Shown here: positions 3,006 through 30,735 of the stretch, in pieces
Numbering within the stretch: the first letter of the stretch is position 1
Layout of the letters: every line of letters starts with the position of its first letter
IMG/VR virus record: IMGVR_UViG_3300040801_004428
Coordinates: 1-64,000 of that record
Origin: a virus
Reading direction: 5' to 3' (one strand)
DNA length: 64,000 bases
Made by a program: the position numbers and the translations under genes
Notes under the pieces: generated by a model
Database searches by the model: none
What the model saw: only the letters and a program-made list of their open reading frames with translations
Told to the model about the DNA's origin: nothing

Positions 3006-3006
3006 T

Positions 3007-10279: not shown

Positions 10280-10311
10280 AAGAAAAAAACCTAACTGGGA
10301 GGTATTACCAC
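10266..10311 (+). promoter_or_regulatory. extended -10 promoter plus A7-CCTAACT leader (copy o)
   Basis: TGGTATAAT-GGCAT-AAGAAAAAAACCTAACTGGGAGGTATTACCAC-ATG. Positions 10280 onward are a near copy of 57705..57735. Confidence 0.55.
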
Positions 10312-14044: not shown

Positions 14045-14707
14045 CTAGTTGGTTCCATTATACAACATCTCGAAGTCATACTGAGTGAAGACCATATTTT
14101 TTAATTGGTCTCTCACTTCTTGTTCTTGCTTACGGGCACGATTACACTGGCGGAGGTTTTTACCACCCTCGCAGATGGTCCTATCGTTGGTGTAACTAAT
14201 CAAGAAGTTTAGATCTCTATCGGAAAGATCTGTTCCAATGGTTGGCACCCCTGAAGGAGTATAATCACTCTGAACTTCATGCGTGTCGTCAAACAAAGGC
14301 CCGGGTTCCATAACCCCTACTTTTAACGTCTCCTCGAGTTTATCCATGGTAATACTTAACATCTCACAGACCTTCTCCTTCGGTACGTTTTTACTCGTCT
14401 GTTCGATAATCTTATAATAGAGGGTTTGCTCTGCTCGGGGAATTCTAATCGCGCGAGTTTTATCACGATAAAAATGCCCAATGTAAGCTACCACCCTCTG
14501 CCAGGCATAAGTAGACAGTTTCATCCCCTTATTGGGGTTATAATCATGCACCGCCACACAAGCAGCATACCAAGCCACTTGGGTTATATCATCCAAAGTG
14601 GCAGCATTCCCCGAATGCTTTTTAGCATACGCGCGCCTGGCAAGGGTCTCTACAACCCATTTTAACTTTAGCACATCTTTTTGTTGTTTTCTGGTAAGTT
14701 TTCTCAT
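14045..14707 (-). CDS. sigma-70 family RNA polymerase sigma factor
   Basis: Regions 2-3 are recognisable: ..LDDITQVAWYAACVAVHDYNPNKGMKLSTYAWQRVVAYIGHFYRDKTRAIRIPRAEQ.. . The C-terminal region is divergent. Start taken at the ATG at 14707, with AAGAGG upstream. Confidence 0.8.
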   Translation of the reverse strand: MRKLTRKQQKDVLKLKWVVETLARRAYAKKHSGNAATLDDITQVAWYAACVAVHDYNPNKGMKLSTYAWQRVVAYIGHFYRDKTRAIRIPRAEQTLYYKIIEQTSKNVPKEKVCEMLSITMDKLEETLKVGVMEPGPLFDDTHEVQSDYTPSGVPTIGTDLSDRDLNFLISYTNDRTICEGGKNLRQCNRARKQEQEVRDQLKNMVFTQYDFEMLYNGTN

Positions 14708-15518
14708 GACCTCTTTTGTTTGTAAAAATCCTAATACAGGCCTAACCTTAAAGGAATTCAATCTAAATACAATATCCCGCCAAAAGGCGATCAACCAATG
14801 CGTCCAGCTTCAACTTGAAGTGTCTACCTCCACCGAGCAGGGACAATCCGCCCAGCGGGCCACCGGAGATCCGGCAATAATCGAAGGAAGGTGGAAAGAC
14901 ATCGATGGTGTAGTAAACGATGTGTATAAATCAGAGCCAGAAAGCAGGCAAAAGATTCATTACAAACCATTTGATGACCGTCACGCCCATGATAGGATTG
15001 TTGAATCCTTCACAGAGCGGTTGGATTATGTATTCCAACGAGCGGCTGAACTTGACGGGGATGATAAAACTCGCGCAATGGAGATGATCTTTAGGGATAT
15101 TACCTCCGTCGTTAGAGCTCTTTACGGAGACATCTTCGACCTCCAAGAAAGGCTAGGCGAAGCCATGGTGAGATTAGATGCGTTGGAAGATTGGAACGGC
15201 GCGGCGTATAATGATGGGTTTGACCTACCCGGGCATGATATACCCCACCATGATCAGTATGACCCACATCCGCCGTATCCTCACTTCCATGGGCGTCATT
15301 TGATTCTAGATAGAGAACAGGATCTCCGCTATCATCAGGGTAGAATGACTTTGTATGATCCATTATACCAGAAATCCCCGGGAATGAAGCGCTACTTGGC
15401 AGCACAACAACAGGCGGGAGTTTCCAAGCCTGAGAATTCTCCCCATAGGGAAGAAAAAGGCTATAGATTTGACCAATCTAAGCTTAAGGGGGACGGCTCT
15501 TCACGTACACCAGTGTAG
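14706..15518 (+). CDS. hypothetical His/Pro/Tyr-rich protein (start uncertain)
   Basis: Long ORF. Its ATG at 14706 shares the tetranucleotide CATG with the divergent sigma start, and no good SD is present. The true start may be an internal GTG. Confidence 0.45.
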   Translation: MTSFVCKNPNTGLTLKEFNLNTISRQKAINQCVQLQLEVSTSTEQGQSAQRATGDPAIIEGRWKDIDGVVNDVYKSEPESRQKIHYKPFDDRHAHDRIVESFTERLDYVFQRAAELDGDDKTRAMEMIFRDITSVVRALYGDIFDLQERLGEAMVRLDALEDWNGAAYNDGFDLPGHDIPHHDQYDPHPPYPHFHGRHLILDREQDLRYHQGRMTLYDPLYQKSPGMKRYLAAQQQAGVSKPENSPHREEKGYRFDQSKLKGDGSSRTPV

Positions 15519-15721: not shown

Positions 15722-15777
15722 TCTTAAGTTCTTTTTCTTTTTTATGGTATAATATACCTATAGAGTTAGAAAAACCG
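15722..15777 (+). promoter_or_regulatory. extended -10 sigma-70-type promoter with shared leader
   Basis: TGGTATAAT (15745..15753), then ATACCTATAGAGTTAGAAAAACCG-ATG. Confidence 0.6.
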
Positions 15778-16443
15778 ATGATCAATCTCACCAAAGAAGC
15801 GATCTTCATCGGGGACTTACACGGTAACTTAGACGCGCTGGAGCAAATCCTAACAAGATATGAATCCCACCATAAAGTTTTTCTCGGTGATTTTTTCAAC
15901 GACAAAGCTGAACTTTGCACCGTGCCCGAAGTAGACAAAATTGTAGAAACAATCCACAACCTGCCCGATACCACCATTGTACACAGCAACCACAATCAAT
16001 TGGTGATTCAAGCCTTAGAGGCTAGAAAACCGCTGGATGTAAATGTGCGCGGGTGGAATATCACCCAGCAGTATATCAACACCTTAGGATTTTCACGCCA
16101 GGAGAGGCTAAAACACTGGTTGAGTTCACACCCCGTGTGGGAGGAATTCCGCACTGTTAATGGCCTAACAATTGCCGCAGCTCACGCGTATCCAAACACC
16201 GCGGCGGAAAAATACCGCAAGGGGAAGTACCTCACCGAGGAGCAAAAGTCCTGCGTGGGGATCAAAACCCCTCATAGGTGGTGGTCTAATAGGAATCTCA
16301 AAGGTGTGTTGTTAAACTGGGACGCCGCAGTTATCGGCCACTATGCACACATTTCTATTAAAGAACGGTTGGTTATTGCCGACCTGGGTGGTTATCAAAT
16401 CCCTGTGTGGGACCCACAAATGGGAAAAATCAAAGTGTTTTGA
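15778..16443 (+). CDS. calcineurin-like metallophosphoesterase (Ser/Thr phosphatase-like)
   Basis: Motifs IGDLHGN, FLGDFFND and HSNHN match the GDxHG / GDxxDR / GNHE pattern. Confidence 0.75.
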   Translation: MINLTKEAIFIGDLHGNLDALEQILTRYESHHKVFLGDFFNDKAELCTVPEVDKIVETIHNLPDTTIVHSNHNQLVIQALEARKPLDVNVRGWNITQQYINTLGFSRQERLKHWLSSHPVWEEFRTVNGLTIAAAHAYPNTAAEKYRKGKYLTEEQKSCVGIKTPHRWWSNRNLKGVLLNWDAAVIGHYAHISIKERLVIADLGGYQIPVWDPQMGKIKVF

Positions 16444-17074: not shown

Positions 17075-17874
17075 GGGTTATATCCACTAAGGTTTTTTTC
17101 TTCACGTATAGCATCGGCAACCAAGTTTAGTTTGCGCAAATCGCGAGATGCCGAACGTCGGTCTTGTGCCAACACACCCCATTCTTGCGCCGCGCGGGTG
17201 AGGTAGTACGTTAGTTTGCAATACACCTCCGCGTCGTTAGCCAATCCGGGTTGGACCGCTTGGTCGGCGTGCTCTTCCGCGACTTCCAAGTAGGTTTGGT
17301 ATTTTCGACTTTCTTTGTAGTCTTCGCCGAAGATTGCCTCGTACATCCGCTCCTCTAGAGAGTTGGATTTACTAAGGTTGTGAAGCCGCACGGTGTCGTC
17401 ATTCACCTGGGTGACTAATCGCTCGCGGAGCTTATTCCACTGGGCGGATAGTTCCACTTCGTGAGTTTTACGATGCGCAATTGGGACGTCTAGTTTATTC
17501 GCTAACGTGCTCAGTGCGTTTGAGCAATACACCTGAAAGGTTGTGAACCCCACACGCGTGCTACCACCGCCGCGGTAGTCAAGCATGGTTAGGTAAGCCC
17601 CAATGGTTGCATTTTGAAAGCTTTCGATTACTTTCGCGTTTACGTATGCTACTGCACCGTTGTTGTAGTGAGCGATTTCTGGCTTTTCGATAAACCCCTC
17701 TAAGTGGAGAGGTTCAAAATACTTGAGCATCTCCTGATCGTTGAGAAACGAGTACGTGGGGGAAACAATAGATAGGATTTTCCCCTCATCGTTGTAGATG
17801 GCATCCTTAGGGATGGATAGCTCAGTTCCATCTTCTAATAGAATTTGACTAATCCGTCCACGTGATACTTTCAT
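17071..17874 (-). CDS. DUF932-like protein
   Basis: ..GGGSTRVGFTTFQVYCSNAL.. resembles the DUF932 ..R.vCsNg. core. Recognised by eye only. Confidence 0.4.
   Translation of the reverse strand: MKVSRGRISQILLEDGTELSIPKDAIYNDEGKILSIVSPTYSFLNDQEMLKYFEPLHLEGFIEKPEIAHYNNGAVAYVNAKVIESFQNATIGAYLTMLDYRGGGSTRVGFTTFQVYCSNALSTLANKLDVPIAHRKTHEVELSAQWNKLRERLVTQVNDDTVRLHNLSKSNSLEERMYEAIFGEDYKESRKYQTYLEVAEEHADQAVQPGLANDAEVYCKLTYYLTRAAQEWGVLAQDRRSASRDLRKLNLVADAIREEKNLSGYNP
17084..17115 (-). promoter_or_regulatory. TGn-N6-TG-A-tract upstream element (copy d)
   Basis: Minus strand reads GATGC-TATACG-TG-AAGAAAAAAA-CCTTAGTGG...ATG(17074). It lies inside the end of the upstream CDS. Confidence 0.5.
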
Positions 17875-17879
17875 ACAGT

Positions 17880-17918
17880 CTCCTTAAGACTTAGTTTTTT
17901 TTTCATGTATGACATTGC
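17880..17918 (-). promoter_or_regulatory. TGn-N6-TG-A9 upstream element (copy e)
   Basis: Minus strand reads GCAATGT-CATACA-TG-AAAAAAAAA-CTAAGTCTTAAGGAGAC...ATG(17874). The leader is identical to copy h. Confidence 0.55.
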
Positions 17919-17969: not shown

Positions 17970-19238
17970 CTACAGCGATTGTAGGCTGACCTGTTTGTAA
18001 TTAAGGCCCATAATTTGACTTCCTGTCAGTTGTTGGTTACCTTTAGCGTTACGTTGAAGGCTTGAAATTTCCAAAGTTGCATACTTATCAATGTATGCGT
18101 TCTCTTGATACGTGCGCGCATTACGTGCAGGAATCTGAGCAACGTGGAATTCATCATCTTCATCTGTAAACGCAGCAATTACTGACGGATATTTGCCTGA
18201 CGTTTCTCGGTATAGACCTAAAATTGTTAGAGTCTCTCCGTATTCGTCTAACTCTCCTAGGACTTCGATCAACTTAGGGGCAAATCGTCCCTTGTGAGAC
18301 ACACTAATACATTGTGGGCCGTGCTCGGAAGCCTCATGATCGTGGAGAGTGTACTCGAACGTGTGGTTCTTATACATTTTGGTTCCATCTTTTGATGCGG
18401 TTTCCTCGAACCCTTTATAAGTGATCTCTAAATCCGTCTTCGTGTTATTTGCAGCATCGGCAATGGCATGAATGACTGTACTCGGTGCAAAGAAGCTAAT
18501 CTTAGCTCCTGTACTGTCTACCGCCTCAATAATCGAGTATGGATTCCCCTTCTTGGAGATTCCAGTCTTTAGGGTTACTTCCGTAAAGGTGTCACCCACG
18601 GCCATGTCGTCGATCTCAATTGTTTTACTCGAAGATCGCATGGCCAGAACGTCAGGAAATCCTTCCAAAGGTAGGAGGAGATCATGAAGTTGGCGAGTTT
18701 CCGCTAGTACTGGAATCTCCGCTGCTTTGACAGACACATCATCTTTGTAGACCTCCGGCTTCCACTTAAGTGAACCGTCGAAGGAGTATGTCACCGCGCG
18801 AGATTTGTCCGGATGGCGGAAGGTGATATTCGCCTGTGGTCGGACTAAGTTCTTGCTGGGAACTTCGTAGTCCGTGAGGGTGATTCTAATCGTCGTGCCT
18901 TTGATTGTGAAGAAGTCATATTCTTCGTTATATTCTAACGGCAGAGTGTGTTCTCCCCACATCATGGCAAATTCACCGTCGGAGTCTAACCCAAGTTGGA
19001 GCGTGACTACTCGTTTTGGCACAGGTTGGGTGCCTTCCATATCGAGTTGTAATGCTGCGTACTTGTTATCCAGCGGCAGGCCGAGAATTTTGTTCGGCAT
19101 TTCAAAATCGCTGGGGTTATCTTCATCCCGATCGCCGGGAATGTTGATTTGCAAATAGCGAGGTACTTCAGTTGGTTCCATCTGGGTTGCGAGAGAAATC
19201 CCATAACCAAAGATTTGTTGAGTTAGAGCTTCAGACAT
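17970..19238 (-). CDS. hypothetical protein, possible OB-fold ssDNA-binding protein
   Basis: 422-aa monocistronic unit between its own TGGTAAAAT promoter and a strong terminator. Two OB-like segments (..TFTEVTLKTGISKKGNPYSIIEAVDSTGAKISFFA.., ..TLTILGLYRETSGKYPSVIAAFTDEDDEF..). The functional call is speculative. Confidence 0.3.
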   Translation of the reverse strand: MSEALTQQIFGYGISLATQMEPTEVPRYLQINIPGDRDEDNPSDFEMPNKILGLPLDNKYAALQLDMEGTQPVPKRVVTLQLGLDSDGEFAMMWGEHTLPLEYNEEYDFFTIKGTTIRITLTDYEVPSKNLVRPQANITFRHPDKSRAVTYSFDGSLKWKPEVYKDDVSVKAAEIPVLAETRQLHDLLLPLEGFPDVLAMRSSSKTIEIDDMAVGDTFTEVTLKTGISKKGNPYSIIEAVDSTGAKISFFAPSTVIHAIADAANNTKTDLEITYKGFEETASKDGTKMYKNHTFEYTLHDHEASEHGPQCISVSHKGRFAPKLIEVLGELDEYGETLTILGLYRETSGKYPSVIAAFTDEDDEFHVAQIPARNARTYQENAYIDKYATLEISSLQRNAKGNQQLTGSQIMGLNYKQVSLQSL

Positions 19239-19293
19239 ATGTTACGGCCTCCAAAGGCTATTTTGTATTTTTTCTTACATCTATATTTTACCA
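19239..19293 (-). promoter_or_regulatory. extended -10 promoter plus A-tract leader
   Basis: Minus strand reads TGGTAAAAT-ATAGATGT-AAGAAAAAATAC...GGAGG...ATG(19238). Confidence 0.55.
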
Positions 19294-19310
19294 CTAAGTG
19301 TACTTAGAAT

Positions 19311-19369
19311 AAAATTAGGGGTATTTTTCAAACTTTTTCTATTCTCCGAGTCCTACCCCCGGCTAGGAG
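19311..19369 (+). repeat. 58-bp direct repeat, copy 1 (diverged)
   Basis: AAAATTAGGGGTATTTTTCAAACTTTTTCTATTCTCCGAGTCCTACCCCCGGCTAGGAG. Confidence 0.8.
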
Positions 19370-19389
19370 AACAACAATATATGAAAAAT

Positions 19390-19449
19390 AAAATTAGTAG
19401 TATTTTTTGAACTTTTTTCTATTCCCCGAGTCCTACCCCGGACTGGGAG
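19390..19449 (+). repeat. 58-bp direct repeat, copy 2
   Basis: AAAATTAGTAGTATTTTTTGAACTTTTTTCTATTCCCCGAGTCCTACCCCGGACTGGGAG. Confidence 0.85.
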
Positions 19450-19452
19450 TAT

Positions 19453-19486
19453 GCAAAAAAGAAAAAATAGACCTATGCTAGGTCTA
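19453..19486 (-). terminator. rho-independent terminator
   Basis: Minus strand has a perfect 8-bp stem, TAGACCTA-GCA-TAGGTCTA, followed by TTTTTTCTTTTTT, just after the 19499..19774 CDS. Confidence 0.75.
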
Positions 19487-19498
19487 CCTCTACAAGGG

Positions 19499-19774
19499 TT
19501 ATGCTAACTTTTTGCGCGTAGTGGAAAGACCTACGGCCACTGGTGCACGTGAAAGACTTTCTTGTATACCAGTGAGAGGGTCAGGAACTTCCTCTCCCTT
19601 ATGAAACCATTTGAAAACTCCGGAGTTCCAATTATAAACTCCGATCGTTGATGTCAACTGTCCAGGCTCACGGACAGTTAGAATGGACCCATTAATGTCT
19701 ATAATGAGTCCCTTATCTTCCGCCTTCTGCTTGTATGCAGAAATTAGAAGCATTAAATCCTCTTGGCTATGCAT
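19499..19774 (-). CDS. hypothetical protein
   Basis: 91-aa ORF. The ATG directly follows repeat copy 3, with no obvious SD. Confidence 0.55.
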   Translation of the reverse strand: MHSQEDLMLLISAYKQKAEDKGLIIDINGSILTVREPGQLTSTIGVYNWNSGVFKWFHKGEEVPDPLTGIQESLSRAPVAVGLSTTRKKLA

Positions 19775-19777
19775 AAT

Positions 19778-19835
19778 AAATTAGTAGTAATTTTTGAACT
19801 TTTTTCTATTCCCCGAGTCCTACCCCGGACTGGGA
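19778..19835 (+). repeat. 58-bp direct repeat, copy 3
   Basis: Differs from copy 2 at only a couple of positions: AAATTAGTAGTAATTTTTGAACTTTTTTCTATTCCCCGAGTCCTACCCCGGACTGGGA. Confidence 0.85.
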
Positions 19836-19862
19836 TTTTTCAAAGATCACGTACACCTGTGG
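19835..19862 (-). promoter_or_regulatory. TGTACGTGA-type element (copy t)
   Basis: Minus strand reads CCACAGG-TGTACG-TG-ATCTTTGAAAAAT immediately upstream of repeat copy 3. Resembles copy c (TGTACGTGATTGAAAAAAA). Confidence 0.4.
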
Positions 19863-20210
19863 CTAAATCTGCTCTTGCACCTCATATATTGTGGCCGTTG
19901 TTGACATGGCAGAGCAATTTGCTCGTGCGATTAGTGCCAACACGTCTGACGTACCGTTGTTTCGAGCCGCCGTTAACGAAGTATAGAATAAACTAAACTC
20001 GCGCCGGCGGCCGTTTTGACACGTTGCTTCCATTACAGCTTCGTATCCGACCGTAATGTAGAGTTGTTTGCTCTGGTAGTCCAAGATCTCAAACCGCCGG
20101 GTTCCGCGACACCCAGATCCCTCGCACTCATATCGTGCCTCTGCGGAAGGGGTGGTGATTGACACCGCGGTGAGAATAAGGATTGTATAGACAAGTATTT
20201 GTTTGATCAT
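19863..20210 (-). CDS. small secreted protein (signal peptide)
   Basis: The ATG at 20210 overlaps the upstream stop (ATGA). N-terminus MIKQILVYTILILTAVSITTPSAEA. The mature part has 4 Cys. Confidence 0.6.
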   Translation of the reverse strand: MIKQILVYTILILTAVSITTPSAEARYECEGSGCRGTRRFEILDYQSKQLYITVGYEAVMEATCQNGRRREFSLFYTSLTAARNNGTSDVLALIARANCSAMSTTATIYEVQEQI

Positions 20211-20449
20211 GATTCTATGATTGGTGTTACTGTAATAGGAGCATCTTCCCACATCAGACAGTTGTTTCTAACCCCTGTTGAAAACAACTCCAAGTGCATC
20301 GCACTCGAGTGAACGAAGTCATAAACTGCTTGGTACTGCCCAGAGGGTACTATTACCTCCATTTGAACCGTACACGGTTCGGCGTATCCGTCCAAACTTT
20401 GGCCCGGGGCCGAAACAATAAACGCTACAACTGATGCCAGTAAATCCAT
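20207..20449 (-). CDS. small protein with hydrophobic N-terminus
   Basis: 80 aa, MDLLASVVAFIVSAPGQ.., with AGAGG before the ATG. Follows tRNA-Met. Confidence 0.55.
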   Translation of the reverse strand: MDLLASVVAFIVSAPGQSLDGYAEPCTVQMEVIVPSGQYQAVYDFVHSSAMHLELFSTGVRNNCLMWEDAPITVTPIIES

Positions 20450-20478
20450 ATCTACCTCTTAGTGTGTTTTTTTCCCAA

Positions 20479-20551
20479 TGCGAGTTACAGGAGTTGAACC
20501 TGTCTGAGCCCAATTATGAGTTGGGTGCCTTATCCGCTCGGCCAAACTCGC
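20479..20551 (-). tRNA. tRNA-Met (anticodon CAT; an Ile-lysidine type cannot be excluded)
   Basis: Folded by hand into a 73-nt cloverleaf: acceptor GCGAGTT/AACTCGC, anticodon stem CCCAA/TTGGG, loop CTCATAA, T-arm ACAGG-TTCAACT-CCTGT. No encoded CCA. Confidence 0.85.
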
Positions 20552-20574
20552 GTGGTTCATGTTCACCAAAGAGA

Positions 20575-21009
20575 CTAACTTATGTTGTTCATAAACTCCT
20601 CCGCTGCCTTTTCGGAGGAAAACACAAACGGGGAAAACTGATTCCCAGCTACGTGGACGTAGCATTGACCATCTAACTTATCAATGAAGATCTTTCGACC
20701 GTCGTGGTCGAACCGGCCAGTTTCTGCCGGAAACCAGCTTAGACAAAATAGGTTTGCCGCCGGGTAGGAGTTTGCAACCTCCTTTGTTAGCATTCCTAGG
20801 TCGGTTCTATCGTTGCTGATTATCCAGTCTAGGACTTCCTCCTTGGTCGTAAACTCCTCCTTTAATAGTTTCCTATCAATTCGGATATTGCCAATATCTT
20901 CTGTATTGGCTGGATACGTAGCATTAGAGGTAACTACGTACCTCTTACCTAGGTGCATTTCGACCTTATCTTCTACAAATTCCCACCACGCCTCAAATAT
21001 TAATCTCAT
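20575..21009 (-). CDS. hypothetical protein
   Basis: ATG at 21009 (MRLIFEAWWEF..), preceded by GAGG. The tracked TTG start lies inside the leader. Confidence 0.65.
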   Translation of the reverse strand: MRLIFEAWWEFVEDKVEMHLGKRYVVTSNATYPANTEDIGNIRIDRKLLKEEFTTKEEVLDWIISNDRTDLGMLTKEVANSYPAANLFCLSWFPAETGRFDHDGRKIFIDKLDGQCYVHVAGNQFSPFVFSSEKAAEEFMNNIS

Positions 21010-21038
21010 TTTACACCTCAATTAGGTTTTTTCTCCAA

Positions 21039-21111
21039 CGCCCCGTGTAGGATTCGAACCTACGACCCACGGTTTAGAAGACCGTTGCTCTATCCGCTGA
21101 GCTAACGAGGC
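21039..21111 (-). tRNA. tRNA-Arg (anticodon TCT)
   Basis: Hand-folded 73-nt cloverleaf: acceptor GCCTCGT/ACGGGGC (one G-T pair), D-stem GCTC/GAGC, anticodon stem ACGGT/ACCGT, loop CTTCTAA, T-arm GTAGG-TTCGAAT-CCTAC. Confidence 0.9.
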
Positions 21112-21121
21112 AGATGTGTTT

Positions 21122-21130
21122 ATTATACCA
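21122..21130 (-). promoter_or_regulatory. extended -10 box upstream of tRNA-Arg
   Basis: Minus strand has TGGTATAAT, 10 nt before tRNA position 1. Confidence 0.6.
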
Positions 21131-21149
21131 TTTCATGTACTACAGAGGG

Positions 21150-21491
21150 TTAGTACGCCGGGTTGGTGTATGTAGCCCTATAAGTTCCTGGCACCAATCG
21201 GTGCGTTTCCGCGTATCGAATCCCATAGGTGTATGAATCACATAGTAAATCGCCATGTGTTGAGACTAGAAACGACACCTCTAGATGGGCCACATCTAGC
21301 GAATGCACTACACCAGATGAATCGTAAAACGGACCAGTTGCATTTACGTAACCTACGCCTTCTACATAGACTCTTCTCACAATGCAATTGGTGTAATTGA
21401 CAAAAGCATAGTATCCCGCATATGCCTCTGCGGCGGGGCCCAATACTACTGCGGCGATAGTTGCGATGGCTGATGTTAATAGTTTCATCAT
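21150..21491 (-). CDS. small secreted protein (signal peptide)
   Basis: 113 aa, MMKLLTSAIATIAAVVLGPAAEAYA.. . Confidence 0.65.
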   Translation of the reverse strand: MMKLLTSAIATIAAVVLGPAAEAYAGYYAFVNYTNCIVRRVYVEGVGYVNATGPFYDSSGVVHSLDVAHLEVSFLVSTHGDLLCDSYTYGIRYAETHRLVPGTYRATYTNPAY

Positions 21492-21502
21492 CTTGGTTCC
21501 TC

Positions 21503-22789: not shown

Positions 22790-23097
22790 TTTGAAGCTCC
22801 TTCTGTTAATCTAAGCACGGATTTTTTGTACATGGCGAGGAGTTCCTCCGTCAGGTCAGCAGCCTCTTCGGGTGTTAGCCGCTCCGCTGTTTTGTTATAA
22901 AGCTTATCCATGTAAGCCTTGTCTAGAGCGGCGCCCATGGTTGACAGGTCTCTCCCATTTTCCTGCAACCCAGTTTCTGGACTACATTCCATGAGAACCA
23001 ACCCATCGAGAGCTTCAATCGCTTGGCGTAGACCTTCAGCTACTTTGGTAGGACCCATTTCAATCGCTTCTTTGATAAATTTGTCTCTATCATACAT
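22729..23097 (-). CDS. hypothetical protein
   Basis: ATG at 23097 (MYDRDKFIKEAIE..). Its leader matches that of the CDS at 90. The 3' end overlaps the next gene by about 60 nt. Confidence 0.55.
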   Translation of the reverse strand: MYDRDKFIKEAIEMGPTKVAEGLRQAIEALDGLVLMECSPETGLQENGRDLSTMGAALDKAYMDKLYNKTAERLTPEEAADLTEELLAMYKKSVLRLTEGASKWLAIPQSRVMSTLGYHDVD

Positions 23098-23800
23098 AGT
23101 GTGGTACCTCGTTTGTTTTTTCAAACTCAATTAGGAGTTTTTCCACATAGGTGTCGAATCTCCTCTTGTCGTAGTATGCAGCAAGTGAGTGCTCAAACGC
23201 ACCGTTGGTCTCATTTTCAATTGCCTCCAACATTTTTTGCGCAACTTGGCGGATTTCAACCTGCGCGTGGGGAGAATTCCGCAAATTGCAAAAATGCATA
23301 AATGAGCGGAAATTAAACGAAACATCTAGAGTTATCATGGAATTATAACCTAGGTAGTACCGGCACGCTTCTTTAGCACGCTTACGGCCTAACTCCAACT
23401 CTGTGTTGTTAATACACTTGTGGTACTGTTCAACTCCCATTACGCCCGCGGTGGCTAGGACCATCTCCTCGTAGCCTTCAAAATCTGCAGGGGTGTAGAT
23501 GTAGTTGTCCTTGATTTCTTTGTACCGCGCGGATTCGCCATTAACCGAGACGCCAATCCTATGTTTTAGTAGATGTATATGGGTAGCCTGATCCACCTTG
23601 ATTAAGAATTGCAAGTATGATTTCTCAAACGGGGTGTGATGCCCATGTAGCATCAACATCCTCAAAAATGCTGGAATCCGCGCGCGTTTTTTCTCCGTTA
23701 GTTCTCGCGACGTGGATGTCCAACCACTACACGCGTGGGATTCATCCCCACCGGCATAGCGGATTAATTCAACATCCTGTGATCTTTTCTCGTACATCAT
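23090..23800 (-). CDS. thyX: FAD-dependent thymidylate synthase ThyX
   Basis: ThyX signature ..LLKHRIGVSVNGESARY.. (RHR..S....S.R type). Start taken at the ATG that overlaps the helicase stop (ATGA). Confidence 0.85.
   Translation of the reverse strand: MMYEKRSQDVELIRYAGGDESHACSGWTSTSRELTEKKRARIPAFLRMLMLHGHHTPFEKSYLQFLIKVDQATHIHLLKHRIGVSVNGESARYKEIKDNYIYTPADFEGYEEMVLATAGVMGVEQYHKCINNTELELGRKRAKEACRYYLGYNSMITLDVSFNFRSFMHFCNLRNSPHAQVEIRQVAQKMLEAIENETNGAFEHSLAAYYDKRRFDTYVEKLLIEFEKTNEVPHYV
23103..23150 (-). promoter_or_regulatory. A-tract leader element (copy n)
   Basis: Minus strand reads ..GGAAAAACTCCTAATTGAGTTTGAAAAAACAAACGAGGTACC.., inside the 3' end of thyX. Confidence 0.4.
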
Positions 23801-25413
23801 AGTGAGTATTCCTTGCTCAAAATTGCTTGGACCGCAGGTGTAAGGTCTTGACTCCTCAATTGAGGTTTCAACCCCATGAATCGCTGCGCATGTGGAGAGT
23901 TCCACCCATCGTGTGATTTACTGCTCGGTCCTAGGTCCATTTTACCATGGAAGTCAGCACACTGCGTACGCATTGCCTCGACGAATTTCTGCCTCGACAT
24001 GCATGTGGCCCCCGGATTGTTGTCCACCAACCATGCGCGGTACGTCTCGTATACTGTACGTACAGTGGGATTTTGATACGGATCGTTGGGGTCATACAAC
24101 TTGTCGGGGATAACATCCCAGAGGGAGTCAACAAACAGGGCGATGTTACTCGATTGGCCTGTAACCTCGAGTGCGAATGCATTAAAGGTTAGAGTGTCCT
24201 TTGCGTCTCGGAACACCCCGGAGGCTTCCTCCACTGAAGAGAATTGACTCAACAGGTAGCCAATAATCTGAGGAGTTTCTTCCTCAAGTTTGGTTCCCAT
24301 ATTAAAGTCTTTCTTCCCAGTGATGGGTGGTACCACGATGACTAAGGCCCTCCGGTTGAGTCCCGAATCAGTGGGTGGTAACACCGCAGTGTTTGAAGCC
24401 ATGATGATCATTGCCCTACAGCGGAATGAATACGGCGTGCGGGCATACGCCACCCGGCCGGTTATTTCATCCGCTGTCGCCATTTTGAGCAGAATGCCGC
24501 CATGTTTCGACACGACGAGGGGTTCTCTCTCATCGGGGAATACCACCAGTGAGGATGATCTAATCGGGTAGATTGAACTCGCGTCTGTTAGCTCCTTAAT
24601 TGTCAGGGTGCTGGTTCTGGTCTGCCCCGCAATGCTATTTAGACAATCAATGTATGTTGATTTCCCCGTTCCTCCTTGTGAGGAGTATAGATGCAAAATT
24701 GATGTCTGCTGCGATCTATGACGCCCTGACATTGATATCAGCGCCGCTGCGAGGAGTACTCGCTTGACTTCGGGCTTACCTCCGGAGAGGTTATCAATCA
24801 TTTGGAGGAAGTTAACTGGCGGGTTTTCCTCACTAGGTGGGACATAATCATGCTTGATTTTGGAAATCAGGTGCCAGTCCTTCTCGTGGGGGACTAGCTC
24901 CTTTGTGGAGAATACATACACTCCGTTATTGAACGGAATGTAACCTTTACTAAGGTCGTATTTCTCCCTGATTGATTTCTCCGGGTTGGGGTAGAACTTC
25001 CTAGCTCCGTTGTAACAGGCGATCTTAGTCACAAGGTGTTCTAATTGGCGGGAAGTTAGTGACTGTAGGTCGTCGAACGACTGGCCTTGTAACTGAGCGT
25101 GTAGGATACTTGCTTTTATTTTGAATTCATCGTATGGAACGTCTTCCCAAGTTCCATAAGCAGCATCAGAATCATCACCGGCATCAGAAGGATCCCTAAA
25201 GTTATAAACAGTAAACTCTTTCCCGTCTCTAGGAAAGCATCCAGCCTGGGCGATTGTGACTGCGGTTCTCGTGATAGGGGAGAATTGTTCCCCGTCTGCC
25301 GGTTTGAGTTCTCCGAGTTGAGAGGGATTAAGCTCAATTCCTCCTCCTCCTTCTCCTCGATTTCGGTAGTCTCCTGTAATGTTGGCAAGAATATCTGATA
25401 GTCCAGACTCCAT
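23797..25413 (-). CDS. SF3 (D5/P4-type) replicative helicase
   Basis: Walker A SSQGGTGKST, Walker B LVVFPDERE, motif C IIMASNTA. GAGGA lies 7 nt before the ATG. Confidence 0.75.
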   Translation of the reverse strand: MESGLSDILANITGDYRNRGEGGGGIELNPSQLGELKPADGEQFSPITRTAVTIAQAGCFPRDGKEFTVYNFRDPSDAGDDSDAAYGTWEDVPYDEFKIKASILHAQLQGQSFDDLQSLTSRQLEHLVTKIACYNGARKFYPNPEKSIREKYDLSKGYIPFNNGVYVFSTKELVPHEKDWHLISKIKHDYVPPSEENPPVNFLQMIDNLSGGKPEVKRVLLAAALISMSGRHRSQQTSILHLYSSQGGTGKSTYIDCLNSIAGQTRTSTLTIKELTDASSIYPIRSSSLVVFPDEREPLVVSKHGGILLKMATADEITGRVAYARTPYSFRCRAMIIMASNTAVLPPTDSGLNRRALVIVVPPITGKKDFNMGTKLEEETPQIIGYLLSQFSSVEEASGVFRDAKDTLTFNAFALEVTGQSSNIALFVDSLWDVIPDKLYDPNDPYQNPTVRTVYETYRAWLVDNNPGATCMSRQKFVEAMRTQCADFHGKMDLGPSSKSHDGWNSPHAQRFMGLKPQLRSQDLTPAVQAILSKEYSL

Positions 25414-25652
25414 AGGTAGTCCTCAGTAAGGGTTAGTGAGCTAATTTGACCTTCTTGTTCCATGACAACTAATGTGGTCGGCATTTCGTTGTTTGGGAGA
25501 TTTGTTTGTAGGATATGCTCAACGTATGGGCCTTTTGTAAAGCCCGTTGGTTGGAGCATAATTGCCGCGTCGTCGATTAGAATAAATTCCATAGGTACGT
25601 CTTTCATTAGATACACGTATACCACTGGAATTGCAATTTGTTCTTCAATCAT
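25116..25652 (-). CDS. hypothetical protein; 3' 300 nt overlaps the helicase gene out of frame
   Basis: The ATG at 25652 overlaps the stop of the ThyA-like gene (ATGA). The first ~80 codons fill the 25414..25652 gap. The rest is an alternative frame of the helicase N-terminus (acidic run plus a hydrophobic segment). Confidence 0.4.
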   Translation of the reverse strand: MIEEQIAIPVVYVYLMKDVPMEFILIDDAAIMLQPTGFTKGPYVEHILQTNLPNNEMPTTLVVMEQEGQISSLTLTEDYLWSLDYQIFLPTLQETTEIEEKEEEELSLIPLNSENSNRQTGNNSPLSREPQSQSPRLDAFLETGKSLLFITLGILLMPVMILMLLMELGKTFHTMNSK

Positions 25653-26491
25653 GTTATGGGTTTGAACCTCTCTTTTGGTAGGTCTAGTTTGTAATAGTTC
25701 CCCACGTTGAAGTGCCTCGGCTTGAGCGCGAGCATATCTTCAAAGCTTTGCAATGGGGGAATTACCACATTCTCGTGGGATGGGTATTCGAGTGTTGGAA
25801 ACTCCTTAGATTGTATTACCTTGTGTGCGTACTTCGAATGCGGTTGGTACACATGTGAATTGGAAACAGTCCAGTGTAGCTTCCAAGGTTTTACTTCTAA
25901 CAATTTAGAAAACATTTGAAGCAATGCCCAATAGCGGATTACATCACCCGGGAATCCCACGATCAAGTCTTGCGACCTACCGACTACGTGCAACTCCAAC
26001 CAATTGCTCTTAGTCGCGTGGAATATCAACGTCGGGTGGCAAGGCGGGACGCGGTCGATACCCAAATCCGATGGGCCCGGCTGATTGGTGGGATCAAACA
26101 GTTGGATGACTGCCCGTCGGGTGAGTATATTCTCTTTGAGTAGTACATAAGTATTGTAGAGCTGATCTACCTGTCCAGCGAAGTTTCGAAAGCTCGCTCC
26201 GTAGGTGTTTGGCAACGACCCGTCGCGATTAGCCCAAGTTTGCCACAAATACGAGGCTTTACCCAACTTATTTACATTCGTATTCCCATTGAGGTCCCAC
26301 ATCAATTCTTGCAAATAATGTTTGACCGGATGGCGACGGTCCGTCAAATATGGGGCCGGTTCCCCATACTCCCAAACAGTAACGGTTGGTTGAAACGTAG
26401 CTTTTGTAGAAGCACCTCTGGAGAAGATAGTCGTGCCTGTAAGGAGAGCCCTAGTAAGCATCTCCTTATATATTTCCATTATTGGTTGCAT
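25649..26491 (-). CDS. ThyA-fold pyrimidine C5 (hydroxy)methylase, predicted dCMP-specific
   Basis: ThyA landmarks ELMWDLNGNTN, RRAVIQLFDP, PPCH (catalytic Cys), GRSQDLIVGFPGD and SNSHVY. Asp replaces the Asn177 equivalent. Confidence 0.7.
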   Translation of the reverse strand: MQPIMEIYKEMLTRALLTGTTIFSRGASTKATFQPTVTVWEYGEPAPYLTDRRHPVKHYLQELMWDLNGNTNVNKLGKASYLWQTWANRDGSLPNTYGASFRNFAGQVDQLYNTYVLLKENILTRRAVIQLFDPTNQPGPSDLGIDRVPPCHPTLIFHATKSNWLELHVVGRSQDLIVGFPGDVIRYWALLQMFSKLLEVKPWKLHWTVSNSHVYQPHSKYAHKVIQSKEFPTLEYPSHENVVIPPLQSFEDMLALKPRHFNVGNYYKLDLPKERFKPIT

Positions 26492-26495
26492 ATTT

Positions 26496-26525
26496 CCTCC
26501 TTAGTTTTTTTCAATCACGTACAGC
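26496..26525 (-). promoter_or_regulatory. TGTACGTGA-A7 upstream element (copy c)
   Basis: Minus strand reads GC-TGTACG-TG-ATTGAAAAAAA-CTAAGGAGG...ATG(26491). Confidence 0.5.
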
Positions 26526-29291
26526 TTAGTAGGAGAACAACTCCTCCGGTTGTAGGGACTCAGATACAATTTGTCCCTCCCAACTAGGGGTTTTAATACT
26601 CCCTCCTTCTTTTGCAAATCGATCCATGATTTCAATAGATTCTGGAAATGCCAGCACGGTTGGTATTTCAAACACCAACCCTAGCGCTTCGATTAACATC
26701 GCCCATGAGAGTAAGTGCGCGACTGCTGCATTTTGAGCGACTTTATACGCATCAGATTTTGCCACCAACCAACCGTATTCATCATGGTAGGGGATCAAGA
26801 ACTTTGCGTCGAGACCCATATGGTTGTTGAAATAATCTGTGAGGGTAATCATTGTGTGCATAAAATCCGCACCGGATCCTTGAATAAAGGCGTTAAATCG
26901 CGATGTTAGTTCTGCATTTGGGCGAGGCAAGTATCTCGTCTGAATTGGCAGGGGTAGTCTAACCCCCAGCAATGGAGTTGCGGGCGTTGGATCTTCCATC
27001 AGGGATAGAACCCCATTAAAGAATTCAGTATGAGTTCCTGACTGCTCCTCGTAGTAGCTAGAACGCAGCTTCTTAGTCCCCCTCATGTATTGTAAGGTCT
27101 CTACAGCGGCAGATTTTGCAAGAGCTTGGTCTGGAATGTGTGCTGCCATTTCTTTCCAGATGGTTTTCGTGGCGGCGGTAACCCCACAGAAGTAGTTTAA
27201 CGCATAGTTGAGCTGCTTCCCGCTGTCACGAGAGTAGTTTGGTAGACCAATCAACGCTCCCAACTTCCGAGCGGTGTTACTATGCGCGTCGGTTTTGTCA
27301 TGTTTGTTACCTGCAAATTGCATGTAGCCAAACGGCGTTATGCCTAGCACTGGAATTGTTGCAAACTTTGAGGCAATTAGCGCAGCAATGAATGCCTCCT
27401 GTGCTGTTACGTCAAAACATACGATTCTCTGCTCTTCGGGTGGAGCAATAAGCATGAGTCGAACTTCATTCCCGATCTTCTTGTCATTTGGGCCCGGAGA
27501 TGGGACCGTTGATAAGACAGGTGATCCAGCCCGGCCTGTGATTGTTTGGTGCGGGACATGGTCGGTTACAATCTTTCCGTTGTAGATGATAGTTCCGTCA
27601 ATCCGGCCGCGCATCGAAGTCCAATAACAGACTTTAATTGCCAGGTCTAGTAGCTCCTGACCTTGTGCAATTTGAGACTTGATAGCCCCGGTCTCGAAGA
27701 ACTCAACGTAGGATTGGTTCAACACTCCTCCTACATTAGCACCAAGGTTCTTCATATGAGGGATTTTAATAACCTCACCTGTGTCATCAACAATGTGGTA
27801 CTTAACCTCCGAGTTGTATAACACCGGATAGTCTTTATACGTCAATCGGGCTAACACATGCGCGAGTTGTGTCTTCGCACCGTAGGCGTCTTTCTTATCT
27901 GCGGTGATATACCAACGGGGTTTACCATAAAGTTCGGGATACTGCGGTACTTTGTATGTCCGCTTGGCGATGATTGGTTTGCCCGTGCGTGGGCTTGGTT
28001 CTTTCTCCCACTTGCCGGGAGTTGCCGCGCACCGGATTTCGTAATTCTTCAGTTTGGTGTTCATTGACCAATCGAGTTGCGACAACCAAGGGTCTGATTC
28101 AGGATCAACGTCCCCACTGAGAAATGCTTTGTACACATTCTTTGCCTCGGCTTTGATGATTTCTTCGAATTGGTGGTTTGCTTCGTGGTAGAGTTTCTCA
28201 CATTTGTGATACCACTCAATGATGTTATCGTCCGCTTTGACTGAGTTGAACGATACTGCTAACATCCCATAGAGGGAGATCATATTGTCTTGCCCAATCT
28301 GCTCGAAGTACTTCATAAGCAAGATTTGGGTGAGTGGGATTAGATCCGCCGCGTCTTGTAGCGAGTATTTGATAATCTCCGCAAAGTGGTCTAACATCTC
28401 ATTGATGTTGCACTTCACGAAATATTCTCGCGTATCTTTAGCATCCTTAGTTCGATTGACCCTATCCGCCAGATGATGCTCTAACAATGAGATTAAGTCC
28501 CCCCGGCAGCCATGCTTAGGCTTGTTGGGGGATTTCATTTGGTTGGAGGTCATTCCCGAAACTTTCTGGTGAAGGGAGAAGGTATCAATGACGAGAATGT
28601 CACACTTGTCTTGGTAGAATTCCTCAGTGCGGATGACGTCAAATCTTGCGTTGTGGGCGATTAGGATCTTGACATGTGGTCCGATGGGTAGTAGTTTAGG
28701 CTGGTAGGGTTCATCAGGTTGGAACCATACCTCATGGAGGTGGATGTACAACTCACCGGTGGCAGTTGCGGCGGTTCCGATAATCGGTGTGTTTGCCATT
28801 GGAAATTCGGATCCCAAGACGTAGGTTTCAGTATCGTAGAAGAGTACTGATTCGGTGGGGTACTCCACTCGGATTGGAGAGCCTAATTTGTCAAGTTTGT
28901 ACCAACCTTCTCCGTCAAACTCATCGATGGAGTATGAGCCCTTGATTTTGTACTTCGGAGTTGGAGGTATCAACGTCGAGAGTAGGCGAATTCGTTTGAG
29001 GTTATCTTCTCCGATTAGTTTACGCGCGGCGGTGTTGGCCCGCTCGCGGAGAGTACTCCCTTGGGGGAGACCTTTAATGATGGTGTCAACCTTATCGATT
29101 AGACTATCAGAAAAAGGTTCTCCAGGCTCGGGTAGTACATCAGTACCAATTTGCTCATTCCATCGTTGCTTAGCATTAGCCACCATCGTCTTAGTAAATT
29201 CAGACATGGCGGGTGGCTCGTACTCGGGTGCAATAGCACGCAGCACTTTGGGGTCTACTGCTGGGTAGCCCATCAATGTTTTATTACTCAT
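26526..29291 (-). CDS. family A DNA polymerase with 3'-5' exonuclease domain
   Basis: Exo motifs FYDTETY and HNARFDV. Pol motif A FDVTAQEAFIAA, motif B RDSGKQLNYALNYFCG, motif C PYHDEYGW. Confidence 0.85.
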   Translation of the reverse strand: MSNKTLMGYPAVDPKVLRAIAPEYEPPAMSEFTKTMVANAKQRWNEQIGTDVLPEPGEPFSDSLIDKVDTIIKGLPQGSTLRERANTAARKLIGEDNLKRIRLLSTLIPPTPKYKIKGSYSIDEFDGEGWYKLDKLGSPIRVEYPTESVLFYDTETYVLGSEFPMANTPIIGTAATATGELYIHLHEVWFQPDEPYQPKLLPIGPHVKILIAHNARFDVIRTEEFYQDKCDILVIDTFSLHQKVSGMTSNQMKSPNKPKHGCRGDLISLLEHHLADRVNRTKDAKDTREYFVKCNINEMLDHFAEIIKYSLQDAADLIPLTQILLMKYFEQIGQDNMISLYGMLAVSFNSVKADDNIIEWYHKCEKLYHEANHQFEEIIKAEAKNVYKAFLSGDVDPESDPWLSQLDWSMNTKLKNYEIRCAATPGKWEKEPSPRTGKPIIAKRTYKVPQYPELYGKPRWYITADKKDAYGAKTQLAHVLARLTYKDYPVLYNSEVKYHIVDDTGEVIKIPHMKNLGANVGGVLNQSYVEFFETGAIKSQIAQGQELLDLAIKVCYWTSMRGRIDGTIIYNGKIVTDHVPHQTITGRAGSPVLSTVPSPGPNDKKIGNEVRLMLIAPPEEQRIVCFDVTAQEAFIAALIASKFATIPVLGITPFGYMQFAGNKHDKTDAHSNTARKLGALIGLPNYSRDSGKQLNYALNYFCGVTAATKTIWKEMAAHIPDQALAKSAAVETLQYMRGTKKLRSSYYEEQSGTHTEFFNGVLSLMEDPTPATPLLGVRLPLPIQTRYLPRPNAELTSRFNAFIQGSGADFMHTMITLTDYFNNHMGLDAKFLIPYHDEYGWLVAKSDAYKVAQNAAVAHLLSWAMLIEALGLVFEIPTVLAFPESIEIMDRFAKEGGSIKTPSWEGQIVSESLQPEELFSY

Positions 29292-30726: not shown

Positions 30727-30735
30727 TATTTGTGT

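Follow-up and report, generated by a model that had tools for sequence, protein, structure and literature searches.

The window analysed here, a 64-kb stretch of a virus record, has its largest non-coding gap within a block of replication and nucleotide-metabolism genes (exonuclease, ThyX, ThyA, D5-type primase, and DNA polymerase), and three direct copies of a repeat lie in this region, all oriented with the genes on the minus strand. From its sequence, the virus appears to be a deeply branching, cyanophage-like phage whose DNA polymerase is of the gamma type and for which public data hold no close relatives; the polymerase shares no more than 31% identity with any other sequence. In the direction of the gene strand, the locus contains the following features.

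19847..19855, minus strand: class-1 gene-start motif TGTACGTGA (CCAC upstream), directly upstream of copy 3
19766..19836, minus strand: copy 3, with its hairpin at 19835-19812 (CCCAGTCC-GGGGTA-GGACTCGGG), then AATAGAAAAAAGTTCAAAAATTACTACTAATTTATT
19499..19753, minus strand: orphan ORF between copies 3 and 2, 84 aa from the ATG at 19753 (91 aa if from 19774)
19453..19491, minus strand: 13-pair stem and then TTTTTTCTTTTTT, the intrinsic terminator that ends the orphan ORF's transcription unit
19379..19450, minus strand: copy 2, with its hairpin at 19449-19424, beginning 6 nt past the terminator T-run
19300..19371, minus strand: copy 1, with its hairpin at 19371-19342, its 3' end abutting the -35 position of the TGGTAAAAT promoter
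19285..19293, minus strand: TGGTAAAAT, candidate extended -10 promoter for the 422-aa gene, ahead of the TAAGAAAAAAT leader and an SD, GGAGG (19252-19248)
17970..19238, minus strand: 422-aa gene, downstream of copies 2 and 1

The three direct copies, on the gene strand at 19300-19371, 19379-19450, and 19766-19836, are genuine. A whole-window scan ranks them as the longest direct-repeat family of the 64 kb, confined to this one locus, and a repeat search returned a single family of three direct copies at 19311-19377, 19391-19457 (the reference), and 19778-19844, spaced 80 and 387 nt apart. Relative to copy 2, copy 3 is 94% and copy 1 70% identical; copies 3 and 2 show only one or two differences over about 57 nt, and copy 1 is about 70-78% identical to the two of them. 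A 27-nt hairpin core, allowed up to 3 mismatches, matches copies 2 and 3 only (0 expected by chance), and a 21-nt AT-rich part matches the three copies only (0.01 expected); likewise, an nhmmer profile built from the three copies recovers those alone, with E-values of 1e-22 to 1e-24 and a next best hit at 0.25. The earlier note had given the unit as ~58 bp. The repeat itself stands, but the homologous unit is longer, ~70 nt when aligned with its flanks, and runs on the minus strand from TCCCAGTCC through ...CTAATTT(T)ATT..CATA. The AT-rich setting also holds: whether scanned in steps of 60, 100, 200, or 300 bp window size, the AT maximum of the 64 kb is 19203-19502.

In each unit, an imperfect GC-rich hairpin of 9 bp precedes AATAGAAAAA(A)GTT..AAAAA..CTAATTT(T)ATT, and the hairpins, terminator, and flanking motifs of the region are as the earlier note described them. 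Gene-strand folding energies of the hairpins are -13.3 (copy 3), -13.8 (copy 2), and -10.8 kcal/mol (copy 1), and the minus-strand RNA folds slightly better than the plus-strand RNA. Copy 1 keeps the register with a weaker hairpin, in which one G-to-A arm change converts a U.G into a U-A pair on the gene strand. The strand preference and this arm change count for the cassette reading developed below; against it, fold z-scores are modest for copy 3 (-2.3) and copy 2 (-2.7), and that of copy 1 is 0.08.

The symmetry of these hairpins raises the possibility that the units are operator sites, at which a dimeric phage regulator would bind the imperfect palindrome and control the orphan ORF and the 422-aa gene together, three sites permitting cooperative binding or looping. 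Copies 2 and 3 carry a perfect 5+5 bp inverted repeat with a 6-bp spacer (AGTCC-N6-GGACT, within CCCAGTCC..GGACTCGGG), the sites overlie the spacer/-35 region of a -10-like hexamer and lie 45-100 bp upstream of both genes' starts, and the phage has one or more transcription factors of its own, such as the sigma-70 region-2 protein encoded at 14045-14794. In copy 1, though, the palindrome is broken (AGCC-N7-GGACT), yet the non-palindromic A-rich 35 nt are equally or better conserved, and the conserved ~60-70 nt far exceed the length of an operator. No candidate binding protein was identified adjacent to the sites, and the model of the 84-aa product is poor and matches no DNA-binding fold. We regard operator sites as an unlikely explanation.

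The A-rich half of the unit resembles, in the same register, the gene-start module found at no fewer than 20 genes of this phage. That standard upstream module reads [T(G/A)TACG or TATAAT-like]-(T/A)GA-A6-8-(C)CTAA-N-(A)GGAG-N5-9-ATG in at least 20 genes and falls into two classes, the first with T(G/A)TACGTGA and an A-run and the second with TATAAT, AGA, and an A-run; written in the same register, the unit is GGGAAT/GAGAAT-AGA-A5-6-G..AAAAA..CTAA. The unit and the modules thus share the order hexamer, NGA, A-run, and CTAA, but the unit adds an upstream 26-nt hairpin and an extra A-run of ~30 nt, and its hexamer, GGGAAT or GAGAAT, is degenerate. A 12-mer, AATAGAAAAAAG, is common to the unit and the TATAAT promoter/leader of the DNA polymerase gene, and AATAGAAAAA occurs four times in the window against 0.23 expected, namely in the three units and in that same promoter/leader (gggTATAATAGAAAAAAGacctaagagg). 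The TGTACGTGA element upstream of copy 3, confirmed at 19855-19847, recurs upstream of many genes and in the remote relative L002, and is a candidate for a phage-specific promoter or -10-like element. Other duplicated regulatory modules are abundant in the genome (D2, D4, D5, D7, D8, and D9), including 54-nt and 23-nt inverted copies.

The earlier note listed several possible roles without choosing among them. The likeness of the A-rich half to the standard gene-start module had been overlooked in it, as had the bracketing of the ORFan and its terminator and the genome-wide occurrence of duplicated regulatory modules.

Copy 3 had been described as running straight into the ATG of an orphan ORF without an SD. 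An in-frame ATG at 19753 is, however, preceded by AAGAGG (19764-19759) at the SD spacing seen at other genes, and the leader of copy 3 runs on to this AAGAGG-5 nt-ATG in a match to those genes. The start codon was probably mis-set, with 19753 the better choice, and since this is the likelier start, copy 3 would lie ~20-90 nt upstream of it rather than adjoining it. The coding score of the ORF is positive in that frame alone, with a codon bias weaker than in core genes. Its product has no homologue among 5.8 billion proteins (the 91-aa form matches only itself in a k-mer index) and no Pfam or PHROG match, and a structure model of the 84-aa form (pLDDT 61) has no significant fold match in the PDB. 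The strong terminator downstream is confirmed at 19491-19463, with 13 pairs and a T-run.

The two near-identical direct repeats, copies 3 and 2, bracket exactly this ORF and its terminator. Given this bracketing, the locus is most likely explained by duplication of a regulatory cassette for gene starts, a commonplace sort of feature in phages. More specifically, we tentatively propose, as a possibility that we hold somewhat short of probable, that the three units are one cis-regulatory cassette, similar to the PeSLs (promoter-early stem-loops) of T4-type phages, duplicated by recombination upon insertion of an ORFan module. The cassette would be a GC-rich stem-loop, or palindrome, fused to the usual promoter-proximal leader of -10-like hexamer, AGA, A-run, and CTAA, and would act in cis on transcription or on the mRNA. 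Homologous recombination at a unit already present upstream of the 422-aa gene may have brought in the orphan-ORF module and duplicated that unit, and the module could be lost by the same route. Several findings weigh against the cassette: a promoter scan detected no canonical sigma-70 promoter on the gene strand in any unit, the second position of the GGGAAT hexamer in copies 2 and 3 is not the critical A, and no -35 element accompanies this hexamer.

The extra copies could instead be neutral scars, with one functional unit or none, and copy 2 and/or copy 1 left over from recombination or duplication and not yet decayed. The near-identity of copies 3 and 2 extends to non-structural positions, which indicates a recent event and not site-by-site selection; copy 2 has neither an ORF nor a good -10 element after it; copy 1 is decaying, with its weaker hairpin and fold z-score near zero; and the repeat is absent from the sole relative. 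Against this, copy 1, old enough to be ~25% diverged, still has its hairpin in register and both the GGACTCGG-GAATAGAAAAAG and the CTAATTTTATT blocks; phage genomes are also compact, and this locus is the largest non-coding gap of the window. On balance, neutral scars are a rather unlikely account, if a slightly better one than operator sites.

Returning to the duplicated cassette, its copies need not act alike. The units are sense-oriented with the genes, the -10 element of the 422-aa gene being downstream of copies 2 and 1. The earlier suggestion of a structured 5' UTR is reasonable for copy 3, given its position between the TGTACGTGA motif and the ORF; transcription would place its hairpin only a few nt from the 5' end of the mRNA, where the hairpin, together with the A/U-rich tract, may stabilize the message or tune its translation. 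Copies 2 and 1 are situated just past a strong terminator and ahead of the best promoter candidate of the 422-aa gene, and are therefore perhaps untranscribed, which counts against the cassette and would leave a role as 5' stabilizer to copy 3 only. At the 422-aa gene they may serve as an upstream A-tract of the UP type and/or as weak tandem promoters; the palindrome fills their spacer and is possibly also a regulator's site. The TGGTAAAAT element itself is present at 19293-19285, and its surroundings keep the register of a -10, then NGA, then an A-run seen at other genes.

The 422-aa protein had been labeled a candidate SSB, a label that finds no support: it matches nothing in Pfam, PHROG, or the PDB (the last also searched by sequence profile), its structure model is poor (pLDDT 33), and it contains no recognizable nucleic-acid-binding domain. 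In a k-mer indexed protein database it matches only itself, and a full HMMER scan adds a single remote homologue of 29% identity, in L002.

The absence of such a domain bears on the idea that the units are some other cis-acting RNA signal, either a nut/put-like antitermination site, by which RNA polymerase would read through the terminator at 19491-19463 into the 422-aa gene, or a translational operator to which a phage protein would bind. The layout, in which an extended, unstructured A/U-rich stretch leads from a hairpin to the RBS, resembles that of the T4 gene 32 operator; copy 3 is also promoter-proximal and upstream of a strong terminator, and the gene-strand fold is slightly favored. 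The units nonetheless match no Rfam family and appear to have neither a boxA-like element nor a two-stem put architecture, copies 2 and 1 lie past the terminator where they would be useless for antitermination, and the 422-aa protein has, as noted, no recognizable domain for binding nucleic acid. An RNA signal of this kind seems to us highly improbable.

A replication origin is likewise suggested by the setting, either with iteron-like initiator sites or with tandem priming promoters beside a DNA-unwinding element, as modeled on the T7 primary origin or T4 oriF/oriG. The stretch 19203-19502 is the most AT-rich of the window and the longest intergenic gap of the replication and nucleotide-metabolism block, and the direct repeats contain palindromes. 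Of the iteron or origin idea put forward earlier, the AT-rich setting is borne out. Against it, the copies are spaced irregularly (80 and 387 bp), one of them beyond a gene and its terminator; neither a cluster of DnaA boxes nor an initiator gene nearby was identified; and the cumulative GC-skew minimum lies at 24,032, 4.5 kb away. The units are, moreover, strand-asymmetric and resemble gene leaders, and the remote relative lacks such repeats upstream of its homologue. We consider an origin very doubtful. A broader formulation, in which the units are more than duplicated leaders and form a dedicated cis-acting element of an orphan phage lineage, either an origin firing from tandem hairpin-containing priming promoters or an RNA operator/antitermination signal recognized by the 422-aa or 84-aa protein, is distinctly unlikely even with both forms taken jointly; if true, either form would tie an ORFan cassette to the expression of an abundant early protein.

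Searches for related loci returned little. The 5 kb of the locus gave only a tRNA match by megablast against 50,697 phages, and only chance matches by distant blastn. Neither the 21-mer core CTATTCYCCGAGTCCTACCCC (241 M metagenome records and 185,579 genomes) nor the 24-mer hairpin core CCCCGAGTCCTACCCCGGACTGGG (IMG/VR) had an exact match. Nothing was found in related-locus searches with the 422-aa protein, the 91-aa protein, or a two-sequence profile, exact-protein look-ups with neighboring ORFs added no contigs, and no homologous repeat copies were found outside the window for covariation. The gene-start motif was rejected as a lineage marker in IMG/VR, where it identified more than 119 single-hit contigs of another phage family and not relatives. 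The remote relative L002, a 3.8-kb contig, does not carry the repeat unit, including upstream of its homologue of the 422-aa gene. The interval between the 222-aa and 422-aa genes is variable, with different and shorter content in L002 (27-29% aa identity), which has a hairpin between the same gene-start motif and the A-run at another gene.

Several other identities were tried for the units and rejected. A canonical promoter within the unit was dismissed, as a consensus scan found none on the gene strand. An intrinsic terminator was set aside because the hairpin is followed on the gene strand by GGGGAATAGAAAAAAG, with no U-run, whereas genuine terminators of this phage have the form AGAGGG...CCCTCT plus a T-run; a terminator scan of the units flagged copy 3 alone, on the opposite strand. 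A MITE- or REP-like mobile repeat was rejected: the unit ends carry no inverted repeat, the rest of the window has no further copy, and the core patterns had 0 exact matches in the databases. Also rejected were a CRISPR-like array, a tRNA or att fragment, and a coding small ORF. An N4-type hairpin promoter was dropped, the window having no ORF for a giant virion RNA polymerase and the loop being 6 nt. In a search of 18500-21500 against Rfam 15, only tRNAs reached threshold, and the best match over the repeat was to a vertebrate lncRNA model (E 0.7).

Among known systems, phage origins of the iteron or promoter type, such as lambda ori, the T7 primary origin, and T4 oriF/G, likewise combine dyad-containing direct repeats with the most AT-rich DNA and a neighborhood of replication genes; the units differ in their irregular spacing, in a copy placed across a gene, and in having no initiator gene, DnaA boxes, or skew signal. 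With lambda nut or HK022 put sites, the position of copy 3 alone fits, and copies 2 and 1 follow the terminator. In halovirus HF2 (Russ et al. 2021; PMC8707807), class I intergenic repeats are 58 bp long and carry promoters; these are archaeal promoters present in many copies, conserved genus-wide, and reporter-tested. The units resemble them as intergenic sequences of ~58 bp with AT-rich motifs upstream of viral genes, and differ in their three copies, bacterial-type context, and lack of relatives.

The closest comparison is with the PeSLs of T4-type phages, described by Arbiol et al. (2010; PMC2839356) and Comeau et al. (2014; PMC4122927). These are stem-loops in or beside early promoters, with AT-rich upstream regions, that precede ORFans in hyperplastic regions, and recombination between their copies gives rise to indels and mini-circles (PMC2839356; PMC4122927). 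Both PeSLs and our units are short (~50-70 bp), repeated intergenic cassettes of a GC-rich stem-loop and an AT-rich promoter-proximal region, ending in the SD and start codon of the downstream gene and found in variable regions before ORFans; in both, copies flank ORFan modules, an arrangement from which indels by recombination would be predicted here as well. The 9-pair imperfect hairpin is present in all three copies and ends at a -10-like hexamer. The near-consensus sigma-70 promoter of PeSLs (-35, 17 bp, -10) was not found, only GGGAAT or GAGAAT standing in the -10 register with no consensus -35/-10. Also counting against the likeness, the hairpin has no T-run after it on the gene strand and is therefore unlikely to act as a terminator, unlike PeSLs. 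PeSLs, moreover, number ~50 per genome and are spread genome-wide, compared with three copies at one locus in 64 kb, and our units belong to an unrelated host and phage lineage with a gamma-like DNA polymerase and a cyanophage-like character. The promoters of this phage appear to be non-canonical, and the three defined sites, together with the recurrent T(G/A)TACGTGA/A-run module, offer a handle for mapping its transcription signals; the repeat, ordinary in kind, is of value chiefly for its place in the regulatory grammar of a hitherto unexplored phage. In a PeSL-type mechanism, small regulatory cassettes serve both as expression signals and as recombination substrates that move ORFans, and if the duplicated cassette is what we propose, genome plasticity of this type would extend beyond the T4 superfamily into a deeply branching, cyanophage-like lineage.

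A repeat search bore out the three direct copies described in the earlier note, which form the longest direct-repeat family in the window, with no fourth copy elsewhere in the 64 kb. Aligned with their flanks, the copies define a homologous unit of ~70 nt on the gene strand, a stem-loop followed by an A-rich element: TCCCAGTCC-GGGGTA-GGACTCGGGG-AATAGAAAAAAGTTCAAAAA(T/A)TACTACTAATTT(T)ATT..CATA. Over its first ~57 nt, only one or two positions distinguish copy 3 from copy 2; the identity of copy 1 to both is 70-78%. Genes surrounding the repeat are all encoded on the minus strand, in the order listed here.

Features of the repeat locus, in minus-strand 5' to 3' order
20252-19863, minus strand: 129-aa ORF, first in order
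19855-19847, minus strand: TGTACGTGA motif, between the 129-aa ORF and copy 3
19836-19766, minus strand: copy 3
19774 or 19753 to 19499, minus strand: orphan ORF, after copy 3
19491-19453, minus strand: strong terminator, between the orphan ORF and copy 2
19450-19379 and 19371-19300, minus strand: copy 2 then copy 1, between this terminator and TGGTAAAAT
19293-19285, minus strand: TGGTAAAAT, after copy 1 and followed by a leader with the Shine-Dalgarno (SD) sequence GGAGG
19238-17970, minus strand: 422-aa gene, 3' of that leader
3' of the 422-aa gene, minus strand: a terminator, then the DUF932 gene

At each scale examined, AT content in the window peaks at intergenic positions 19203-19502. 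This maximum and the neighborhood of replication genes would suit a replication origin, but we regard that reading as improbable given that the copies are irregularly spaced across a gene, no DnaA-box cluster was found, the cumulative GC-skew minimum falls at 24,032, and the unit is leader-like and strand-asymmetric.

The hairpin stem consists of 5 bp plus 3-4 bp, interrupted once by a bulge or mismatch, and is closed by a loop of 6-7 nt. Folded on the gene strand, copies 3, 2, and 1 give -13.3, -13.8, and -10.8 kcal/mol, against -12.4, -12.4, and -11.2 kcal/mol on the opposite strand; their fold z-scores (flanks included) are -2.3, -2.7, and 0.08. Copy 1 carries three changes in the 5' arm with the register preserved, and a G-to-A change in the 3' arm converts a U.G to a U-A pair in gene-strand RNA, a single weak hint that the structure may act at the RNA level on the gene strand. 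Operators for a dimeric regulator are an unlikely reading of the units: the AGTCC-N6-GGACT dyad is attractive, yet it is disrupted in copy 1, whereas the asymmetric A-rich part is preserved. Small RNA genes, N4-type hairpin promoters (the window has no giant virion RNA polymerase ORF), terminators (the stem-loop lacks a T-run behind it on the gene strand), and MITEs (no further copy in the window) were rejected.

Upstream regions of all likely genes were compared and then analyzed by motif searches, revealing a stereotyped gene-start module at at least 20 genes of the phage. In it, a hexamer and (T/A)GA precede 6-8 A residues and (C)CTAA; a short spacer then leads to (A)GGAG, with ATG 5-9 bases further on. 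Hexamers fall into two classes. Class 1, T(G/A)TACG, seen as ..CC(A/G)C..TGG(y)GT(R)C(R)TGA, often stands right behind a terminator hairpin in the orientation of the downstream gene, and leads directly into the A-run, CTAA, SD, and ATG. Class 2 is TATAAT-like, as at the DNA polymerase gene (TTGCTT-17-TATAAT-AGAAAAAAGacctaagagg). A near-universal 5' leader, GAAAAAAA(C)CTAA-N-(A)GGAG, lies upstream of at least 20 genes, and the leaders of several gene pairs are 96-100% identical across 24-28 nt.

Gene-start elements
3377-3385, 15501-15509, 17102-17110, 19847-19855, 26515-26523, 29792-29800, 34186-34194, minus strand: class-1 motif
119, 748, 17907, 21872, 47233, 47893, 48528, minus strand: class-1 motif variants
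1777, 2239, 41754, 58183, plus strand: class-1 motif
2291-2315 and 3175-3199 of L002, the 3.8-kb contig of a remote relative: class-1 motif
718, 1335, 3348, 17874, 26491, 29291, 29771, 48501, 57736, 58214: example genes with the near-universal leader
17878-17901 with 30734-30757; 4952-4979 with 15754-15781; 10277-10301 with 57702-57726: paired near-identical leaders

In L002, the class-1 motif stands behind stop codons as TATACGTGAAG and TGTACGTGAAG, and its presence in this remote relative marks it as a lineage-level signal. It is a plausible promoter for the sigma factor that the phage itself encodes, the sigma-70 region-2 protein (14045-14794), or alternatively may be a processing site. The sigma-factor ORF (minus strand, TTG start) overlaps a 306-aa plus-strand ORF with a positive coding score (14598-15518) by ~200 nt, and the assigned start of one of the two is only putative. 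Separately, the 19-mer TGBTRTACGTGAARAAAAA has a single match in each of >119 IMG/VR contigs (L003-L121); most of these contigs carry a homologue (~24%) of the 635-aa protein that the window encodes at 48898-50805, so what the pattern identifies is a site conserved within a different phage family rather than relatives of this phage. This stereotyped gene-start grammar is a more informative by-product than the repeat itself.

The repeat unit stands in exact register with the module: copies 2 and 3 read GGGAAT and copy 1 reads GAGAAT, each followed by AGA, an A-run, and later CTAA. Against an expectation of 0.23, the window has just four occurrences of the 10-mer AATAGAAAAA, in the three units and the DNA polymerase module. 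A consensus scan found no canonical promoter in the units, and their degenerate hexamers are only candidate promoters; GAGAAT retains the critical A2 and T6, GGGAAT does not. On the 3' side of copy 3, the sequence runs AGCCAAGAGG-ATTTA-ATG (19753), with the SD AAGAGG at 19764-19759. As this SD and its spacing resemble those of other genes, ATG 19753 (84 aa) is the most likely start of the orphan ORF, in place of 19774 (91 aa), and this would remove the puzzle of a small ORF said to have no SD. The ORF scores as coding in that frame only, with a bias weaker than that of core genes.

We tentatively read the units as a cis-regulatory gene-start cassette. At copy 3, judging from the motif's position at other genes, transcription would begin a few bases after TGTACGTGA, placing the hairpin ~6-8 nt from the mRNA 5' end, with an unstructured A/U-rich leader of ~45 nt between it and the SD and ATG. 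Given how bacterial mRNAs decay and how S1 assists initiation, a hairpin near the 5' end together with such an A/U tract would be expected to stabilize the message and favor its translation. Counted from the start that TGGTAAAAT predicts, copy 1 would have its A-tract at ~-36 to -65 and its hairpin at ~-66 to -92, positions that would suit an UP-like element or the binding site of an activator or repressor; copy 2 could be a second such element or an insertion by-product. Antitermination or translational-operator RNA is very improbable, as the units resemble such signals in position alone, match no Rfam family, and, in the case of copies 2 and 1, are located past the terminator.

The window is a portion of a tailed phage genome, encoding a baseplate J-like protein, RNR small subunit, ThyX, ThyA, D5-type primase, topoisomerase subunit, Rv2179c-like exonuclease, DUF932, sigma-70 region-2 protein, and two tRNAs. 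Its gamma-like DNA polymerase (26526-29291; PF18136 and PF00476) is at most 31% identical to any of 5.8 billion proteins, its closest relatives being the cyanophages of the S-TIM5 group, S-CBWM1, Mic1, and A-HIS1 (25-31%). No DNA-level similarity to phage collection records was found beyond a tRNA stretch, nor a close relative of the lineage in any collection searched. Flavin-dependent ThyX (23090-23905, PF02511) and a classical ThyA-type thymidylate synthase (25649-26491, PF00303) are encoded 3 kb apart or less, with the primase gene between them. The tRNA-Arg(TCT) gene (21038-21112) is 92-94% identical over 64 nt to those of Klebsiella, Shigella, and Citrobacter T5-like phages.

The near-identical copies 3 and 2 enclose exactly one orphan ORF and its terminator, with a period of 387 bp. 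No homologue of this ORF was found among the 5.8 billion proteins, it matches neither Pfam nor PHROG families, and fold comparison gave nothing informative. The 422-aa gene has one remote homologue only (29% identity), on L002, with synteny preserved on both flanks: upstream lie a homologue of the 222-aa protein and tRNA-Arg(TCT) (518-589, syntenic in both phages), and downstream a 256-aa gene without a Pfam match, behind a near-identical leader. The L002 segment ahead of the homologue has different content and lacks the repeat, indicating that sequence content ahead of the 422-aa gene is variable. At L002 2300-2382, a TATACGTGA motif is directly followed by a strong hairpin with a T-run, a 24-A run, and the next gene's leader; motif, hairpin, and A-run stand in the same order at copy 3. 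Other duplicated regulatory modules in the genome include leader/promoter repeats of 24-39 nt, and inverted pairs of 54 nt (91%) and 23 nt (100%) flank the two-gene block 2238-3348, which may be an inverted or shuffled module. These inverted repeats (2160-2250 and 3374-3466) each contain the 3' end of a gene, a hairpin that is a bidirectional terminator, and the T(G/A)TACGTGA motif. Neutral scars of duplication would be consistent with copies 3 and 2 being nearly identical but are less compatible with the patterned conservation in copy 1, and we think this account rather unlikely. For the gene-start cassette, Campbell-type insertion of a unit-ORF-terminator circle at a resident unit would yield precisely copy 3-ORF-terminator-copy 2.

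The closest described system is the promoter-early stem-loop (PeSL) of T4-type phages, a small cassette combining a stem-loop with a promoter, AT-rich in its upstream part and sited ahead of ORFans in hyperplastic regions, where recombination yields indels and mini-circles (PMC2839356; PMC4122927). The unit is alike in layout and probable evolutionary role, but lacks two defining PeSL features, a consensus sigma-70 promoter and, probably, a terminator-type stem-loop, and its copies are few, as counted in 64 kb of a 118.6-kb contig; we therefore class it as a variant and not as a PeSL member. The 58-bp promoter repeats of halovirus HF2 are a looser analogue (PMC8707807).
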